DNA of 64,000 nucleotides from Escherichia coli (GTDB taxonomy: Bacteria > Pseudomonadota > Gammaproteobacteria > Enterobacterales > Enterobacteriaceae), in NCBI RefSeq assembly GCF_048403405.1, contig NZ_CP183129.1. The stretch is one strand, 5' to 3'. Of this stretch, positions 41,757 through 54,163 are shown one piece after another (the first letter of the stretch is position 1; the number at the start of each line of letters is the position of its first letter). Made by a program: the position numbers and the translations under genes. The notes beneath the pieces were generated by a model. The model was not told the DNA's origin. It made no database searches and saw nothing but the letters and a program-made list of their open reading frames with translations.

Positions 41757-42893
41757 ATGGGACAGAGTAAAAAATTGAATAAACAACCGAGTTCGCTTTC
41801 ACCGCTGGTGCAATTGGCGGGAATTCGCAAATGCTTTGATGGTAAAGAGGTCATTCCCCAGCTGGATCTGACTATCAACAATGGCGAGTTCCTCACGCTG
41901 CTTGGCCCTTCTGGCTGCGGTAAAACAACCGTTCTTCGCCTGATTGCAGGTCTGGAAACTGTTGATTCCGGACGCATCATGCTGGATAACGAGGACATCA
42001 CCCACGTTCCGGCGGAAAACCGCTATGTGAACACTGTTTTCCAAAGCTACGCACTTTTCCCCCACATGACCGTGTTCGAAAATGTGGCCTTTGGGTTACG
42101 CATGCAAAAAACCCCCGCTGCTGAAATTACGCCCCGCGTGATGGAAGCCCTGCGGATGGTGCAGCTGGAAACCTTCGCTCAACGTAAACCGCATCAGCTT
42201 TCTGGTGGTCAACAGCAACGCGTCGCCATTGCTCGCGCGGTGGTTAACAAGCCTCGTCTGTTGTTGCTGGATGAGTCGCTCTCAGCGCTGGATTACAAAC
42301 TGCGCAAACAGATGCAGAACGAGCTGAAAGCGCTACAGCGTAAGCTTGGCATTACATTCGTCTTCGTGACTCACGATCAGGAAGAAGCACTCACCATGTC
42401 GGACAGGATTGTGGTGATGCGCGATGGTCGCATTGAGCAAGACGGCACGCCGCGTGAAATCTACGAAGAGCCGAAAAACCTGTTTGTTGCTGGGTTTATT
42501 GGCGAAATCAATATGTTTAACGCCACTGTCATCGAACGTCTCGACGAGCAGCGCGTACGCGCCAACGTTGAAGGCCGCGAATGTAATATCTACGTTAACT
42601 TCGCCGTTGAACCGGGGCAAAAACTGCATGTTCTGCTGCGCCCGGAAGACTTACGTGTTGAAGAGATTAACGACGACAACCACGCTGAAGGGCTGATTGG
42701 TTACGTTCGCGAGCGTAACTACAAAGGCATGACGCTGGAGTCGGTTGTTGAACTGGAAAATGGCAAGATGGTGATGGTCAGCGAATTCTTCAATGAAGAC
42801 GACCCTGACTTTGACCACTCTCTCGACCAAAAAATGGCCATTAATTGGGTAGAAAGCTGGGAGGTCGTACTGGCTGATGAAGAACACAAGTAA
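41757..42893 (+). CDS. potA: Spermidine/putrescine ABC transporter ATPase PotA
   Basis: 378-aa ORF with Walker [10 protein letters not shown], signature LSGGQQQR, Walker B LLLLDE. Confidence 0.95.
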
Positions 42894-43740
42894 GTTCCAG
42901 AATGTAGTGATTGTCACTATTGTCGGTTGGCTTGTGTTGTTTGTCTTTCTGCCCAACCTGATGATCATTGGCACCAGCTTTTTGACCCGCGACGACGCCA
43001 GTTTCGTCAAAATGGTCTTTACGCTGGATAACTACACGCGTCTGCTCGATCCGCTCTATTTTGAAGTGCTATTGCACTCGCTGAATATGGCGCTGATCGC
43101 CACCCTCGCCTGCCTGGTGCTGGGCTTTCCTTTTGCCTGGTTTCTGGCGAAGTTGCCACACAAGGTGCGTCCGCTGCTGCTGTTTCTGCTGATTGTTCCG
43201 TTCTGGACCAACTCATTGATTCGTATCTACGGGCTGAAAATTTTCCTCAGCACCAAAGGCTATCTCAACGAGTTTTTGCTCTGGCTGGGCGTTATCGATA
43301 CACCAATTCGCATCATGTTCACACCCAGTGCGGTGATTATCGGTCTGGTTTACATTCTGCTGCCGTTTATGGTGATGCCGCTGTACTCCAGTATCGAAAA
43401 ACTGGATAAGCCGTTGCTGGAGGCGGCGCGCGATCTCGGTGCCAGCAAGTTGCAGACCTTTATCCGCATCATTATCCCACTGACGATGCCGGGGATTATT
43501 GCCGGATGCTTGTTGGTGATGCTGCCAGCGATGGGCCTGTTCTATGTGTCCGACCTGATGGGCGGTGCGAAAAACCTGCTGATCGGTAACGTCATCAAAG
43601 TACAGTTCCTCAATATTCGTGACTGGCCGTTTGGTGCAGCCACCAGCATTACGCTGACTATCGTAATGGGCCTGATGTTGCTGGTTTACTGGCGCGCTTC
43701 TCGCTTGCTGAATAAGAAGGTGAGCGAATTAGATGATTAA
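42877..43740 (+). CDS. potB: Spermidine/putrescine ABC transporter permease PotB (3' end abuts prophage DNA)
   Basis: 287-aa ORF, multi-TM permease with EAA-like loop ([23 protein letters not shown]); overlaps potA end; potC does not follow. Confidence 0.9.
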
Positions 43741-43971
43741 TCCTTTATATTCAATGCATTAAGTTTGTTTTTGAGTGGTTTTGCCGTTTAAGGTAACGGC
43801 GTTATAGATCCTATCAAAATCAATCAATTCCATTCTGGTTTTGGAGAAAGATTTTTCGAGAGCTTCGGTCTTTAACTAAAACTGATTGCGTATAATCCCA
43901 ATACCCCTCCCCGACTATCTGAATGGTCGGGGAGGCACTTCAAGCACAAAATATCATCCCTGCGCCGTTGA

Positions 43972-44238
43972 TTACTCTGCAGGTGAAGTCGGCCACTCAA
44001 TATCAGGTGCAGTTGATGTATCAACACGATTCAACAATACCCGATATTTATTCCATGCCTCCAGCAACGATCTTTCTTCCGCCGTTGCGATTTCCAGATC
44101 TACAGCATCCTGCAGTGGCGCAATATACTCACTGAATTCCTGGATGTGGAACTGTGTGGTGACGGTCTTCCAGTCATTCGGCTCCTGCTGTATCGAAGCA
44201 TACCAGGCTATTTCAATATCGCTATGCTGCGGCAGCAT
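43972..44238 (-). CDS. Tail fiber assembly protein fragment (Tfa C-terminal domain homolog, 88 aa)
   Basis: C-terminal 50 aa (...[52 protein letters not shown]) near-identical to the end of the full tfa at 45018-45602. Confidence 0.6.
43991..44134. repeat. Direct repeat copy 1 of tfa 3' end (about 85% identical to 45040-45183)
   Basis: ggccactcaatatcaggtgcagttgatgtatcaacacg... shared by both loci; also upstream shared motif ataatcccaat...gattactc. Confidence 0.85.
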
Positions 44239-45017: not shown

Positions 45018-45602
45018 TTACTCCCTGACAGGGTTCGTAGGCCACTCAATATCAGGTGCAGTTGATGTATCAACACGGTTCAGCAACACCCGATACTTTT
45101 TCCAGGCTTCCAGCAATGAGGTTTCTTCCTCCGTTGCAATTTCCAGATCTGCAGCATCCTGAAGCGGCGCAATATGCTCACTGGCTACCTGCATCAGGTT
45201 GTTTTTTGTTTCTTCCGCCTCCCGGATCCGGAACAGTTTTTCTGCTTCCGTATCCTTCACCCAGGCTGTGCCGTTCCACTTCTGAAACTCCCCTTCCGGC
45301 GATAACCAGGTAACATTTTCCGGTAACGGACCGAGTTCAGAAATAAATAACTCGTCCCCTGACGCTACGTCATAAACCGTTTTCCCCCGATGGTCTTCAA
45401 CGAGATGCCACGATGCCTCATCACTGTTGAAAACAGCCACAAAGCCAGCAGGAATATCTGGTGGTGCAATATCGGTACTGTTTGCTGGCAGACCTGTATG
45501 AGGCGGAATATATGCGTCACCTTCACCAATAAATTCATTAGTTCCGGCCAGCAGATTATAAATTTTTATGGTCCGTGCTTGTTCACTCATTCTGAATGCC
45601 AT
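45018..45602 (-). CDS. tfa: Tail fiber assembly protein Tfa
   Basis: 194-aa [82 protein letters not shown]... recognised as lambda Tfa-like. Confidence 0.9.
45040..45183. repeat. Direct repeat copy 2 of tfa 3' end
   Basis: See copy 1; the two copies bracket the methyltransferase gene. Confidence 0.85.
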
Positions 45603-49446: not shown

Positions 49447-52400
49447 TCAGCTGATACTGATGCCTGCGGTGGCTTTCTTCATCACCACAACCAGCAAATC
49501 GCTGATACTTGCTGTGGGATACCAGTTATTCACCAGCCATGCTGACACCGAAAACTCCAGCGTCATGTGGCCGCGACCAGCTGGCATATCAATAACACCA
49601 CTGTAAATCAGCGTATTATCCAGCGCGGTACGGTTATAAATTTCAGCACCGTTTTTCCGTACTATCAGGCGGCATGACGAATAAGTATCGCTGTTCTCCC
49701 GCTCATGTCTGGCACCGCTGAAAGCCACCGCCGGAATAACAATCTGCCGGTTAAACGGCTGATCGTCATAAACCCTGACGGTAATGGTTCCTGATGGCCA
49801 ACGCTCCGGTGCACGGGAGTCACGGGGGAAAGCCTTACCCACTGTTTTAACGAGATCGCCTTCAATCTGGTTTGCAGACAGTTTCCCTCTGATGACACAG
49901 TTCTCGTTAATGGTGACATTATTGAGCGTGCCGGTATTCGCCGTGATGGCTCCACTGATATCCGCATTGCGGGCTGTCAGCCTGCCATCCGGCGTCAGGG
50001 AAAACGTAGGAGGATTGCCGGATGACGTGATGCTCACCGCAAACAGTCGCTTCAGGAACACGTCGTTCATGAACAGCTGATTCCCCTGCGCCACAAACAG
50101 CGGCGTGGTGTTGCCATTCTCCGGGGTAATCATCGCGATACGGTCCGCCTGCAGCAGAATACTGCTCAGCGTCTGACCATCAACATCCTCAATCCCCGCA
50201 CCAATCCCGGCCACATAGGGAATACCGTTTTTTGTTTTCTGCACCTTCAGCATATACATGGCATTCAGCTCATTGCGCGTGTCTGACTGAACCCGCTGGA
50301 TTTGCTGTATGGTCACGGCCTGGTCACCCAGCTTTTTATCCGTGGTCGAGGTAATTTCACTCCCTTTTTTATCCACGTACTGGCGGACCTGTGCTATCTG
50401 TCGGGCGTTTTCTGACTGCCCCTGGCTGACAGTCTGTGAGATTTCACTGCTCACCCGGTCCACTTTCTGGCTCACCTGCGCGATGGCCAGTGTCTGGTCC
50501 TCATTCTTTTTCGCAACCAGCTGCGTGAGGCTGTTTTCCGCCTTCCCGATTTTCCGGGTCACTTCTGCGATATCCGTGTCCATCCGCTGACGGATGTCTT
50601 CTTCCAGTTGCGTGACCTCCGTACGCAGCGCTGAAGCATCAATGCGCTCTTTCAGTGCCTGGCCCAGAAGCGTCTCATCTATCAGCCCCCGGAAAATTTC
50701 CAGATACCCTTCACCATCATTGCTGGGCTGCCCGCTGGCTTCCACAAAAGCAGATTTTCCCACCAGGTTGACGCTTCGCACGTAAAACCAGAAATCCGTC
50801 CCCGGCTTAATCCGGCTCCCCTGGACAGTCCACTGACTGCCGGTCCCCAGATAACGGGCAGATTTTTCCACCTGTGCCGTGTTCGTGATGCGTTTTTCTG
50901 AGAACCAGAATTCAAACTGTACCGTCGGGTCATACACCGCAAGACGCGGGACCGCCGTTATCTGAAAATACCCCGGCGTCAGCTCAATGGTGGCGGGTTT
51001 TGCAGGCGCGTTAATCCGGAAGGTGGTGGTCGCAGGTTCGCCCTGCTGGCCGTAGCTGTTAATGGCCCGCACCGTCAGGGTGTATTCCCCCAGTGGCAGG
51101 CCGCTGAAACGGTGCTCCGTGTCTGCGGTGATGGCGGTGGTCACCAGTCTGGCATCCGTTCCCTTACCACTGGTCAGGCGCAGACTGAAGCGCACACCCT
51201 TCACCACCCGCGGCGTGTCCCATTTCGCCTGCGCCAGATACTGGCCGTCAGCTGCGCTCACCTCCACCGTCAGGTGCTGCACTGCCGGTGGGATGACGCT
51301 GTTCAGGGAACCTGACTGCGGCTCAAAGCGGGCACCGTTATCCACGATGGCTTCTTTTTCCGGTACGTGCTGCACCGCCGTGATGGCAAAGGTGCCGTCC
51401 GTGTTTTCCCGGACGGAGACACAGCGGAACAGGCGACGGCGCAGTGACGGCAGGGAGAGTCCCCACACCCCGTATGTCTCCACACCATCAGGCAGGGTAC
51501 TGACCTGTATCCGGTCCGGCGCGGGGTGTTCGGTGATGTCCACACTCACTGGCTTACCGCTGCCGTTAATCAGGTTCACCGTGGCGGCACCGGTCTCCGG
51601 AAGTGTCACTTCACGGTCCAGCGTCAGGGTGCGGGTGGCAGCATCAATGGACAGGACACGTCCGCCGGTCAGGGTCCCGGCATAGTCGTTATCACAGATT
51701 TCAATGATGTCACCGGGTGTGTGCCGCAGCCCCTGAGACCCGAGCGTGAAATCCACCGTCTGCGTTTCCAGCAGTTCGGTCTTTATCACCCACAGTCCGG
51801 CACGGTGGGCCTGACCGCGGCTGGTACAGCCGAACGCGTCCATCTTCAGCAGGTTGCGTCCGTAGCGCAGTATGGCTTCCGGGTCTTCCACCAGTTCCGT
51901 GGAGGTCTGCCAGCCGTTCTGCGGGTCGGTGTAATTCACCTCCACCGCCGTGTGCCGGTCCTTCAGGGCACTGAAGCTGTAGCGGAATCCCACGCCGTTA
52001 TCATCCACCACCACATCGCTGTTGGTGTACGGCCACACCACATCCGACGGGCGGTCCTGAACGAACGTCAGCGTCTGACCGTTCCATACCGGCATACAGC
52101 GCATCGCAGAGCAGAAATCACTGAGAACGTCCCACGCCTTACGCTGTTGTGCCAGGTACGCATTAAAGGTCATCCGCGGCTCGGTCCCCCCGAAACCATC
52201 CGGGACCGTCTGGTCGCAGTACTGCCCGATGGCATACAGCGCCCACTTGTCCACATCCGCCGCCCCCAGACGTTTTCCCATGCCGTAGCGCGGGTGAGTC
52301 AGCATGTCCCACAGGCACCAGGCCGGGTTGTTGCTGTATGCCGGTTTCAGACTGCCGTCCCAGATACCACTGTACGTGCGTTTTTCCGGGTCATAGTTTG

Positions 52401-53139
52401 ACGGCACCTGGATGATACGACCGCGGATATGGTAGTTCACCGTCATCTGCTGGCCGCCGAACTGCTCCGCATCCACCTGCAGCCCCACAATGGCCGTGTT
52501 CGGGTAGCACTGTTTCACATCGATGATTTCGGTGTATGACGACCACAGCGTCTTATTCTGCAGCTGGTCCGTGGTGCTGTCCGCCGTCTCCCTGACCATC
52601 CGGATGTTAAAGGGCCGGGGAGGCAGATTATCCAGAATCACCGAGGCCAGGAACTGTGAGGTGGTCTTGCCGTTAATGGTGACGTCCTTTTCTGTCACCC
52701 AGTTACCGTTACGCTGTAACTGAATCAGCAGGCGGACGGTTGCCGGGTTACGGTCACCCTTTGAGGTGGTCTCCACCAGTGACTGCACCCCGAAGGTAAC
52801 CCGCAGGCGGTCAATGTTCGCGGACGTAATGGTGCGCGTCACCGGTTTTGCCTTCGTCACTTCCACGCCCAGTCCGGTTTCAGCTCCGGAGGACTCAAAG
52901 CCTTCCGGTGGTGTCTGCTCCTGCTCCCCGGCACGCCAGACCGCGGTCACACCGTGTATCACGGGATTACCGTCCGTGTCCGTCAGCGGGGTTTTGTTCA
53001 CCAGAATACTCTGCAGTCCCTTCACCGGACCTTCTATCGGTCCCTCACCAATCGCATCAATCACACTCATCATCTGCGTGGATTTGAGATTATCCTTCGC
53101 CTCACGAGGCGTGTGTGCCTTACCGCCACCTTTTCCCAT
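49447..53139 (-). CDS. J: Tail tip host-specificity protein J
   Basis: 1230-aa [55 protein letters not shown]..., lambda J-like. Confidence 0.9.
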
Positions 53140-53241
53140 ACAGCCTTCCCCTGAATAAATTAACCGCCACTTGCCATTCCGTACAGAAGTCGGATATCCT
53201 TCGCCCGAAAAGCATGAAACACATTTCTGCCATGCTAAAGA

Positions 53242-53276
53242 GAAACCCCGGTATCAGCAGATACCGGGGTTTTCTT
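53242..53276 (+). terminator. Strong hairpin plus U-tract in the I–J gap
   Basis: aaaccccggtatc agca gataccggggttt (10-13 bp perfect stem) followed by tctttc. Confidence 0.45.
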
Positions 53277-53344
53277 TCATGCCCACCGATAATCCTGTTG
53301 GTTAAAACCGGTAATGGCATAAAAATTCTGAATATCTTCACATT

Positions 53345-53477
53345 TTCACACACTGACTGTGGCGCGTATAATTTCTCTGCGTTAATTTTTTTGTCGTGAT
53401 ATAAGAATAATTCCTTACACTTAATCTTCGTAACTCTCCCGCAGTTCCTGTCCGCGATCACTGCGGGATTTTTTTAT
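53345..53477 (+). ncRNA. Candidate small RNA unit in I–J intergenic insertion (promoter 53345-53372, terminator 53438-53477), antisense to tail operon
   Basis: TTCACA-16 nt-TATAAT with AT-rich upstream; no ATG-initiated ORF downstream; cccgcag...ctgcggg hairpin followed by atttttttatt about 65-100 nt after predicted start. Confidence 0.3.
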
Positions 53478-53482
53478 TCTTT

Positions 53483-54163
53483 TTACCCCTGCCGCCCGAT
53501 AACCACGACCTTTCCGCCCCCGCCTTCATCACGGGTGCTGATGTCCTGGGATATACGGCGGGAGCCAACCAGCATTTCCCCGTAAGGCACCGGCATCGGG
53601 TTCCCCTGGGCAATCATGTTATCCAGCGAGGAAAAGTACGTGTTCTGTCTGCCGTTATCCGTTGCGCGGTAATCCGGTGTTTTTGCCTTCGGGGCCAGCA
53701 TCTGGGCCACTCCGCCCAGTATCATGCTGGCACCCAGTGAAAACAGCATCGTGGTGGCAGAAAAACCACCGGCACTCAGGGCTGTACCCCATAACGCCAT
53801 CGAGCCTCCGGCCGTGAAGAAAGAGCCCACGATGGCTGCCGCCCCCAGCACAATCTGCAGTCCACCCTTTCCGGCCCCGGCCAGTCGCGGCACAATGTGG
53901 ATGACCGTTCCCTCACCCAGCTGTTCGTGAAGACGGGCGTACACCGCCTCCGGTGCCGTGTCATCACCGGCAATACGTATCTGGTACCAGCCTTCGTTCA
54001 TCTGACGGCGAAAGCCCGGCATCTGCATCGACAGGGCGCGAATGGCTTCCGCTGCCGTGTTCACATACAGGCTGAGGCGGCGGCCAAATCGTTGTAAATC
54101 CCCGTGAAGGCAGATGCGTGCCAGTGGCGGTGACGCCAGACAGAATGCGTTCGTCGTTGCCAT
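53483..54163 (-). CDS. I: Tail assembly protein I
   Basis: 226-aa ORF, lambda I-like, overlaps K. Confidence 0.8.
   Translation of the reverse strand: MATTNAFCLASPPLARICLHGDLQRFGRRLSLYVNTAAEAIRALSMQMPGFRRQMNEGWYQIRIAGDDTAPEAVYARLHEQLGEGTVIHIVPRLAGAGKGGLQIVLGAAAIVGSFFTAGGSMALWGTALSAGGFSATTMLFSLGASMILGGVAQMLAPKAKTPDYRATDNGRQNTYFSSLDNMIAQGNPMPVPYGEMLVGSRRISQDISTRDEGGGGKVVVIGRQG

Follow-up and report, generated by a model that had tools for sequence, protein, structure and literature searches.

The gap between tail genes I and J of an Escherichia coli prophage holds a divergent allele of the PasB/EcOnc22-24 small RNA family

The window analyzed here is a stretch of 64,000 nucleotides of Escherichia coli DNA (NCBI RefSeq assembly GCF_048403405.1, contig NZ_CP183129.1) and includes a prophage whose tail operon runs on the − strand. 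Within this operon, the tail tip/host-specificity gene J (49447–53139, −; phrog_31, "central tail fiber J," E = 0) and the tail assembly gene I (53483–54163, −; phrog_4244 and phrog_32) border a gap of 343 bp (53140–53482); gene I has a shorter form, starting at 54064, in the PGAP annotation. A preliminary description of this DNA had singled out the gap for its length, and the ORF coordinates and the PHROGs identities of J and I agree with that account. A RefSeq genome that differs from the window by 33 mismatches over 22,861 colinear nt has gpJ and a tail assembly protein annotated at the gap borders and no feature inside the gap. The insert, whose conservation in related prophages the preliminary description had left to be checked, is not a chance feature, since 1,668 of 5,426 complete E. 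coli genomes, or approximately one in three, contain its sequence. At some distance from the gap, colinearity with NZ_CP023820.1 shows that potA and potB (window ~41757–43740 and 43970–44140) adjoin a truncated tail fiber assembly gene, which places a prophage end beside the potABCD locus.

On the + strand of the gap, opposite the tail operon, lies a compact unit with a promoter, a short RNA body, and a terminator. The near-consensus σ70 promoter reported earlier (53345–53372) consists of a −35 element TTCACA (53345–53350), a 16-nt spacer, and a −10 element TATAAT (53367–53372); it scores 11/12 and is the best of four matches in 3 kb, where 1.7 are expected. Alignment to E2348/69 and to the published coordinates of the small RNA (sRNA) PasB, discussed below, yields a predicted primary transcript of 97 nt (53379–53475, +), which we refer to as the window, or W, allele. 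It begins with a G at +1 followed by CGTTA, a start conserved across alleles. The predicted +1 lies 15 nt upstream of the published, coverage-based PasB 5′ end, and the equivalent of the published 83-nt PasB corresponds to 53394–53475 in the window. The transcript folds with a predicted energy of −19.4 kcal/mol (z −2.1), and the predicted folds of all alleles are weakly structured.

The RNA's 3′ end is formed by an intrinsic terminator and predicted Hfq-binding module at 53438–53475 (+), identified by scanning and folding, which reads CCCGCAGT ... ACTGCGGG, then A and U7. Its full stem, CCCGCAGT/ACTGCGGG, occupies 53438–53467 and its U7 tract 53469–53475, in good agreement with the terminator proposed previously at 53438–53477; the terminator scan itself places a site on the + strand at 53451–53467 plus a T-run. 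An sRNA criterion in the RIL-seq study of enteropathogenic E. coli (EPEC) was a U-tract of at least 4 after the intrinsic terminator (PMC8550237), and here an 8-bp stem is followed by seven U residues. The last 25 nt of the transcript are those of PasB. Upstream of the terminator, a predicted single-stranded pairing (seed) region, UUCCUUACACUUAAUCUUCG (53411–53430, +), is unpaired in most folds; its 5′ part is unlike PasB, and its core, AAUCUUC (53423–53429), is invariant or nearly so in the family, with A46–C51 invariant in the alignment. An additional, putative element was read from the sequence at 53403–53411 (+), where A-rich ARN runs occur in most other alleles. PasB carries the run AAC-AAA-AAC-AAC at this position, and ARN motifs in Hfq binding have been described (Tree et al. 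2014, PMC4104026). A covariation test on 22 alleles recovered only the invariant terminator stem, which is partly imposed by the search pattern itself, and a shared 5′ hairpin pairing a U-run with an A-run was unsupported by the folds of individual alleles.

The compact sRNA gene that the preliminary description had proposed opposite the tail operon finds its counterpart in PasB, an sRNA discovered by Hfq RIL-seq in EPEC strain E2348/69, confirmed by Northern blot, and dependent on Hfq for its stability (Pearl Mizrahi et al. 2021, PMC8550237). PasB was mapped to the − strand of NC_011601.1 (1466343→1466261, 83 nt), between E2348C_1436 and E2348C_1437 (PMC8550237, Table S6). The + strand of this genome carries both I, whose end is at 1466255, and J, whose start is at 1466496, so that PasB lies inside an I–J gap and opposite the operon; it thus shares with the window sRNA its slot, its strand, and its distance to the I stop codon. 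Over the stretch that begins with the A-tract, includes the −10, and ends with the conserved GCGTTA, the two promoter regions agree at 62 of 66 positions. The RNAs themselves align with indels at 64 of 83 identical positions, and their longest exact run in common is the terminal 25 nt; the PasB Northern probe matches 20 of 23 positions of window 53448–53470. Both RNAs contain the CCUU and AAUCUUC motifs, and the differences between them lie in the pairing region. The E2348/69 gap measures 240 bp, whereas that of the window, with its 343 bp, has a different left block. [quoted passage not shown] The window resembles this arrangement, as a copy of the Rfam family IS009 (RF02111, 225 bits) lies within 10 kb of its sRNA, at 45061–45259 (−), within this prophage's tail fiber assembly gene.

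Published expression data show how a unit of this kind behaves in a lysogen. The PasB unit is active there while the tail operon is silent, because PasB has a base mean of 482–1,082, compared with 2–27 for the neighboring tail genes (PMC8550237). Its log2 change in the comparison of wild type with Δhfq was −6.8 and −2.4, it took part in 37 RIL-seq interactions, and it was more abundant after overnight static growth in LB than in DMEM (PMC8550237). Hfq-dependent accumulation and chimeras are properties of the E2348/69 allele and very probably of the Sakai allele; by analogy, they would be expected of the window allele as well. The window gene is a member of the already described PasB/EcOnc22-24 family, represented by a divergent allele, and the sRNA interpretation is supported; the preliminary description was unaware both of the family and of the divergence of this copy.

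EcOnc22, EcOnc23, and EcOnc24 are orphan Hfq-CRAC peaks of enterohemorrhagic E. coli (EHEC) O157:H7 Sakai (PMC4104026), assigned to its prophages Sp15, Sp14, and Sp11, respectively (Tree et al. 2014, PMC4104026, Table S2). EcOnc22 appears as an RNA of ~85 nt on Northern blot and is destabilized in Δhfq (PMC4104026). In NC_002695.2, the published EcOnc24 and EcOnc22 peaks lie within the I–J gaps (240 bp each) of Sp11 and Sp15, opposite the operon. The Table S2 coordinates derive from an older genome version, and AgvB lies ~139 nt further along in the current one; after the shift measured with AgvB, EcOnc24 lands on the RNA body of the module. The offset of the Sakai Table S2 coordinates relative to RefSeq (NC_002695.2 ~1941922–1941978, at 1.94 Mb) appears to be about +128 to +139 nt, and re-use of these coordinates needs a corresponding correction. 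Given this offset, which we infer, EcOnc22-24 very probably occupy the same I–J slot as PasB. They share the promoter box and the terminator of the window sRNA, but they carry a body allele of the CP-1639 type and lack a recognizable σ70 −35 element.

Upstream of the promoter, an A-tract and a dyad box, TCTGA-ATATCT-TCACA (53321–53342, +; box 53327–53342), form a candidate binding site at which a dimeric regulator could act; the half-sites resemble those of CRP and Cra. We compared 24 distinct promoter variants, chosen solely by the 3′ end pattern and the +1 anchor. All 24 contain the box TNTGA-N6-TCACA (also readable as TnTGAA-N4-TTCAnA), and none has an indel in the 58 nt upstream of the anchor. 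The half-sites of the box are invariant among these variants and the central bases vary; the distance from TCACA to the −10 is 24 nt in those alleles that were counted by hand. The −35 is not conserved in other alleles, and the −10 keeps A2 and T6. E2348/69 gives the same σ70 promoter call as the window, and a σ70 promoter scan of the Sakai Sp11 gap gave no call, yet EcOnc24 was detected there. This pattern is the one expected of dependence on a dimeric regulator, and control by such a regulator is suggested because the invariant dyad box lies upstream of a −35 that is not conserved. The box matches the CRP core at 9 of 10 positions, although four such matches occur in the window where 2.3 are expected, and its center lies at −44.5 from the predicted +1, a spacing that does not fit the −41.5 typical of class II CRP sites. 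Operators of the Cra type are likewise compatible with the half-sites TGAA/TTCA. PasB behaves opposite to the CRP-repressed Spf between overnight static LB and DMEM (PMC8550237), a behavior compatible with CRP and Cra alike as the candidate regulator.

Phage morons, as described by Juhala et al. (2000), are prophage-expressed units with their own promoter and terminator that lie between two genes of a late operon. The window unit resembles them in having both signals and in sitting between adjacent operon genes, and its expression in the lysogen can be surmised from its homologue PasB; it differs from morons of the sodC type in that its cargo is a non-coding RNA and not a protein gene. On this evidence, we consider it highly probable that the gap holds a self-contained moron unit encoding a trans-acting, Hfq-dependent sRNA of the PasB/EcOnc22-24 family, ~97 nt in length (~82 nt if processed), which a promoter of its own drives in the lysogen. 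In such a model, a dimeric regulator would bind the dyad box and control the sRNA promoter, and transcription in the lysogen would proceed on the strand opposite the silent operon. The RNA would bind Hfq through its U7 terminator and the run AAG-AAU-AAU, and its single-stranded stretch at 53411–53430 would pair with the Shine-Dalgarno and start-codon regions of target mRNAs. The window RNA would thereby work like PasB but on other targets. A hairpin in the left half of the gap would most likely stop operon-strand transcription before J in the lysogen and be read through under Q antitermination.

This hairpin was predicted by folding at 53243–53277 on both strands and consists of a 13-bp stem, AAACCCCGGTATC/GATACCGGGGTTT, with the loop AGCA and flanking A- and T-runs. 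The second strong hairpin of the preliminary description (53242–53276) is thus recovered at 53243–53272, and it is very stable on either strand (−31.9 kcal/mol, z −7.0, for a 76-nt + strand segment; −27.1 kcal/mol, z −5.8, for a 55-nt − strand segment). In these models, it looks like a terminator in both directions and is most likely either a terminator or insulator acting on the operon strand ahead of J or what is left of a decayed upstream module, namely its terminator. The latter could apply because the spacer after the hairpin (53283–53297) resembles the inter-module spacers of tandem arrays described below, so that the hairpin could have terminated a lost or divergent upstream module. The former draws on a comparison of gap types: non-homologous operon-strand hairpins with a T-run lie between the sRNA promoter and J in the window, E2348/69, and Sakai Sp11 (loci of our collection carry L numbers; window 53243–53277; L001 2931–2954; L193 1223–1246). 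The presence of such a hairpin in all three block types suggests a terminator that silences J in the lysogen until Q overrides it, and this would lend partial substance to the second option of the preliminary description, control of read-through into J.

A different reading of the left half (53140–53280) is that it forms a second, independent sRNA gene on the + strand, producing a transcript of ~70 nt from a promoter at 53171–53200 to a terminator at 53243–53277. The strong + strand hairpin with its U-run is preceded by a second small stem, the spacer beyond it has the tandem-array character just mentioned, and upstream lies a promoter-like site, TTGCCA-18-TATCCT (53171–53200, +; 9/12), which we would regard, speculatively, as a remnant of, or the promoter for, a second ~70-nt transcript. 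In 13 phage records, moreover, the left block is 100% identical. Against this, the promoter is weak and has no family box, and the hairpin is just as good on the opposite strand and is missing from some loci (it is cleanly deleted from L053 and L064, whose gaps are otherwise intact). The 175-bp left block accompanies either RNA allele, but it is absent from E2348/69 and Sakai Sp11/Sp15, where shorter, unrelated blocks take its place. Outside the I–J slot, we found no copies of the left block, the apparent second place in each phage record being the hairpin matching itself. We judge a second sRNA gene in this half to be unlikely.

The sRNA unit could also act mainly in cis. The late transcript contains, in its I–J spacer, the full complement of the RNA; expression of J or read-through into it might be tuned by convergent transcription, by antisense pairing, or by the two combined, with the operon-strand hairpin contributing. 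Such a role would accord with a position inside the tail operon that is fixed in all relatives, and with the finding that three unrelated gap types have a terminator-like hairpin on the operon strand, between J and the sRNA promoter. The geometry of the RNA argues otherwise: its 3′ end, at 53475, lies 7 nt outside the coding sequence of I, whose stop codon begins at 53483, and its start is ~240 nt upstream of the J start, so that no ribosome-binding site is covered. PasB, moreover, forms many trans chimeras on Hfq, and some gaps that are otherwise intact have lost the hairpin. Polymerase modified by the lambda Q protein ignores intrinsic terminators. An action mainly in cis appears quite improbable to us, and it is compatible with the trans-acting sRNA that we favor.

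To what extent the window allele would share the targets of PasB can be judged from the published interactions. In overnight static LB, the RIL-seq partners of PasB included E2348C_2648 (71 chimeras), the napF 5′UTR (70), map (67), the nlpD-E2348C_3010 intergenic region (56), hflX (55), and fabR (50) (PMC8550237). In at least three cases, the partner fragment is located at a start codon or just upstream of one; the start codon is that of napF itself in one case and, in the E2348C_2648 and fabR cases, that of the downstream gene. The PasB sequence CUUCACAUUGAUCUUC pairs with GAAGGUCAAUGUGAAG of napF over 16 bp, with one G·U pair, and the napF stretch extends from the Shine-Dalgarno sequence through the GUG start codon. 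This predicted duplex fits repression by blocking of the ribosome-binding site. Because it lies in the single-stranded stretch before the terminator, we place the PasB seed there, where the census authors had also predicted it (bioRxiv 10.64898/2026.05.13.724894).

At the napF-pairing place, the window allele reads CUUACACUUAAUCUUC and keeps 11 of the 16 pairs, interrupted. We computed duplex energies for five fragments with 30-nt target windows and shuffled controls, as RNAduplex on long fragments gave unrealistically long helices. For napF, the duplex z score was −4.4 with PasB and +1.2 with the window allele, and the corresponding values for map were −2.6 and +0.1; on both targets, the window allele performs no better than shuffled controls. 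By these predictions, the pairing with napF and map is lost in the window allele. Since the stretch at 53411–53430 differs from that of PasB, the window allele most likely controls a different set of targets, as far as sequence can indicate.

Alternatively, the window allele might be functionally equal to PasB, or a decaying copy of it, the differences between them reflecting neutral drift. In favor of this, the AAUCUUC core, the CCUU motif, and the terminator have all been retained, and the folds predicted for every allele are weakly structured. The differences, however, cluster in the very stretch that PasB uses to pair with napF and map, and abolish the predicted duplexes. The allele occurs at ≥99% identity in 612 genomes with its near-consensus promoter intact, and the same body type is found beside a different upstream region in copies linked to sodC. 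For these reasons, we find drift a very improbable account of the window allele, and we continue to regard it as an sRNA that most likely has targets of its own.

That the gap instead encodes a small protein, such as a 113-aa ORF on the operon strand or one of the annotated "hypothetical proteins," has next to no chance of being correct: mechanical ORFs do span the gap and a few phage records annotate short hypothetical proteins in it, but none of the ORFs across the window gap has a PHROGs match, the ORFs annotated elsewhere differ from record to record, and the 113-aa ORF exists only in the allele combination of the window, breaking to 81 aa or to ≤54 aa in relatives. The earlier statement that the gap has no ORF consequently stands in the sense that no conserved ORF or PHROG family is present, although mechanical ORFs, including that of 113 aa on the − strand, do cross it. 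With no PHROG match and no conserved frame among relatives, we rejected a protein-coding reading.

Known RNA families other than PasB/EcOnc22-24 were likewise considered. Searching the whole window against Rfam at the gathering threshold placed no family in the I–J gap, the only hits being IS009 and C0299 elsewhere; the latter sRNA (RF00119, 112 bits) lies at 7281–7359 (−). A permissive Rfam search of the gap returned no match with E < 0.9, the best being PK-repZ, whose 16.8 bits fall short of its gathering score of 44. An identity with AgvB/AsxR, our first candidate, was dropped on account of unrelated sequence and a different site: neither the conserved ~42-nt 3′ region of these RNAs (…GCCCGAACCCAYTCGGGC) nor their moron site downstream of PR′ fits the window sRNA. 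AgvB and AsxR (Tree et al. 2014, PMC4104026) nevertheless resemble the window family in being short, prophage-encoded, and Hfq-bound, and in combining a conserved 3′ part with a variable pairing part that exists as several alleles in several prophages. They serve as sponges of core sRNAs, whereas the partners of PasB are mostly mRNAs.

Loci collected from IMG/VR, phage records, and genomes reveal a multi-allelic family with at least six body types, the window type being among the two commonest. Essentially all alleles share the promoter region, the G at +1 with CGUUA, the core (U)UAAUCUUC, the terminator CCCGCAG…CUGCGGG, and a U-tract of at least 6; a U-run and an A-rich ARN run are each present in most. 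A short C/U-rich stretch varies between alleles, reading CUCCUU in PasB and UUCCUU in the window. The 612 genomes with the W allele body at ≥99% identity are drawn from 5,426 complete E. coli genomes (approximately one in nine, many of them clinical isolates), another 588 of which carry W-like bodies at 90–95% identity. Among the RefSeq records, we found none that annotates the W allele. Strain 7/2 (NZ_CP023820.1) is one example of an E. coli carrying the allele, which is also present in E. albertii. A scan of species-representative genomes detected true members outside E. coli only in E. albertii and a few contigs of unrelated taxa; five other matches were unrelated terminators and were discarded. 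The contigs in question (L187, L189, and L192), assigned to Collinsella/Clostridiales MAGs and to Parendozoicomonas, carry the exact E. coli I–J gap sequence and probably represent contamination or mis-binning.

The published bacterial census of PasB used a word size of 28 and required query coverage above 75%, and it reported only a few nucleotide differences among PasB variants (bioRxiv 10.64898/2026.05.13.724894). Because the longest run shared with PasB, 25 nt, is shorter than a 28-nt word, the W allele, by our calculation, could not have seeded this search, and we infer that it lies outside the census.

In some prophages, the I–J gap contains two to four tandem modules of promoter, RNA, and terminator, spaced ~220–230 bp apart. 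Four modules are present in L122 (7517–8436), as well as in L129, L135, L175, and L176; L100 has three, and L095/L096, L130, L133, and L143 have two. Each module of an array has a different pairing region; one module has a different terminator, and one has a degenerate −10. The four-module array (≥80% coverage) was found in 67 of the 5,426 complete E. coli genomes, among them several Shiga-toxin-producing (STEC) strains, and in none of the deposited phage genomes. A protein-coding moron can occupy the slot as well: in L093 (Stx2_EH1846), a sodC moron encoding a Cu/Zn superoxide dismutase lies in the I–J gap at 589–1306, on the strand of the sRNA. In this locus, and also in L102, L104, L119, L186, and L189, sodC has its own terminator, beyond which comes a W-like RNA body devoid of the box promoter. 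The I–J slot is a hot spot for small self-contained units, since both tandem sRNA modules and sodC with W-like bodies occur there.

We tentatively propose, as an appreciable possibility, that the I–J gap serves regulatory RNAs as a cassette locus. Its promoter, fixed and regulator-dependent through the invariant dyad box, and an equally fixed Hfq-binding terminator would frame a pairing region of at least six alleles; these would recombine with different flanks and, in some STEC prophages, be stacked in tandem arrays of two to four modules. The W allele would then be a distinct sRNA with its own regulon, and the census would undercount the family.

The family itself has been known since 2021 as PasB and probably since 2014 as EcOnc22-24; the aspects worth a short follow-up are its allele diversity, the tandem arrays, and the invariant promoter box, which offers a direct handle on the signal that switches these RNAs on. 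The W allele is missing from RefSeq annotation and from Rfam, even though it occurs in about one-ninth of complete E. coli genomes. If alleles differ in their targets, as the predicted loss of napF and map pairing suggests, comparisons of strains by the presence or absence of PasB would miss allele-specific targets, and prophages that are alike in their proteins would rewire host regulation differently.
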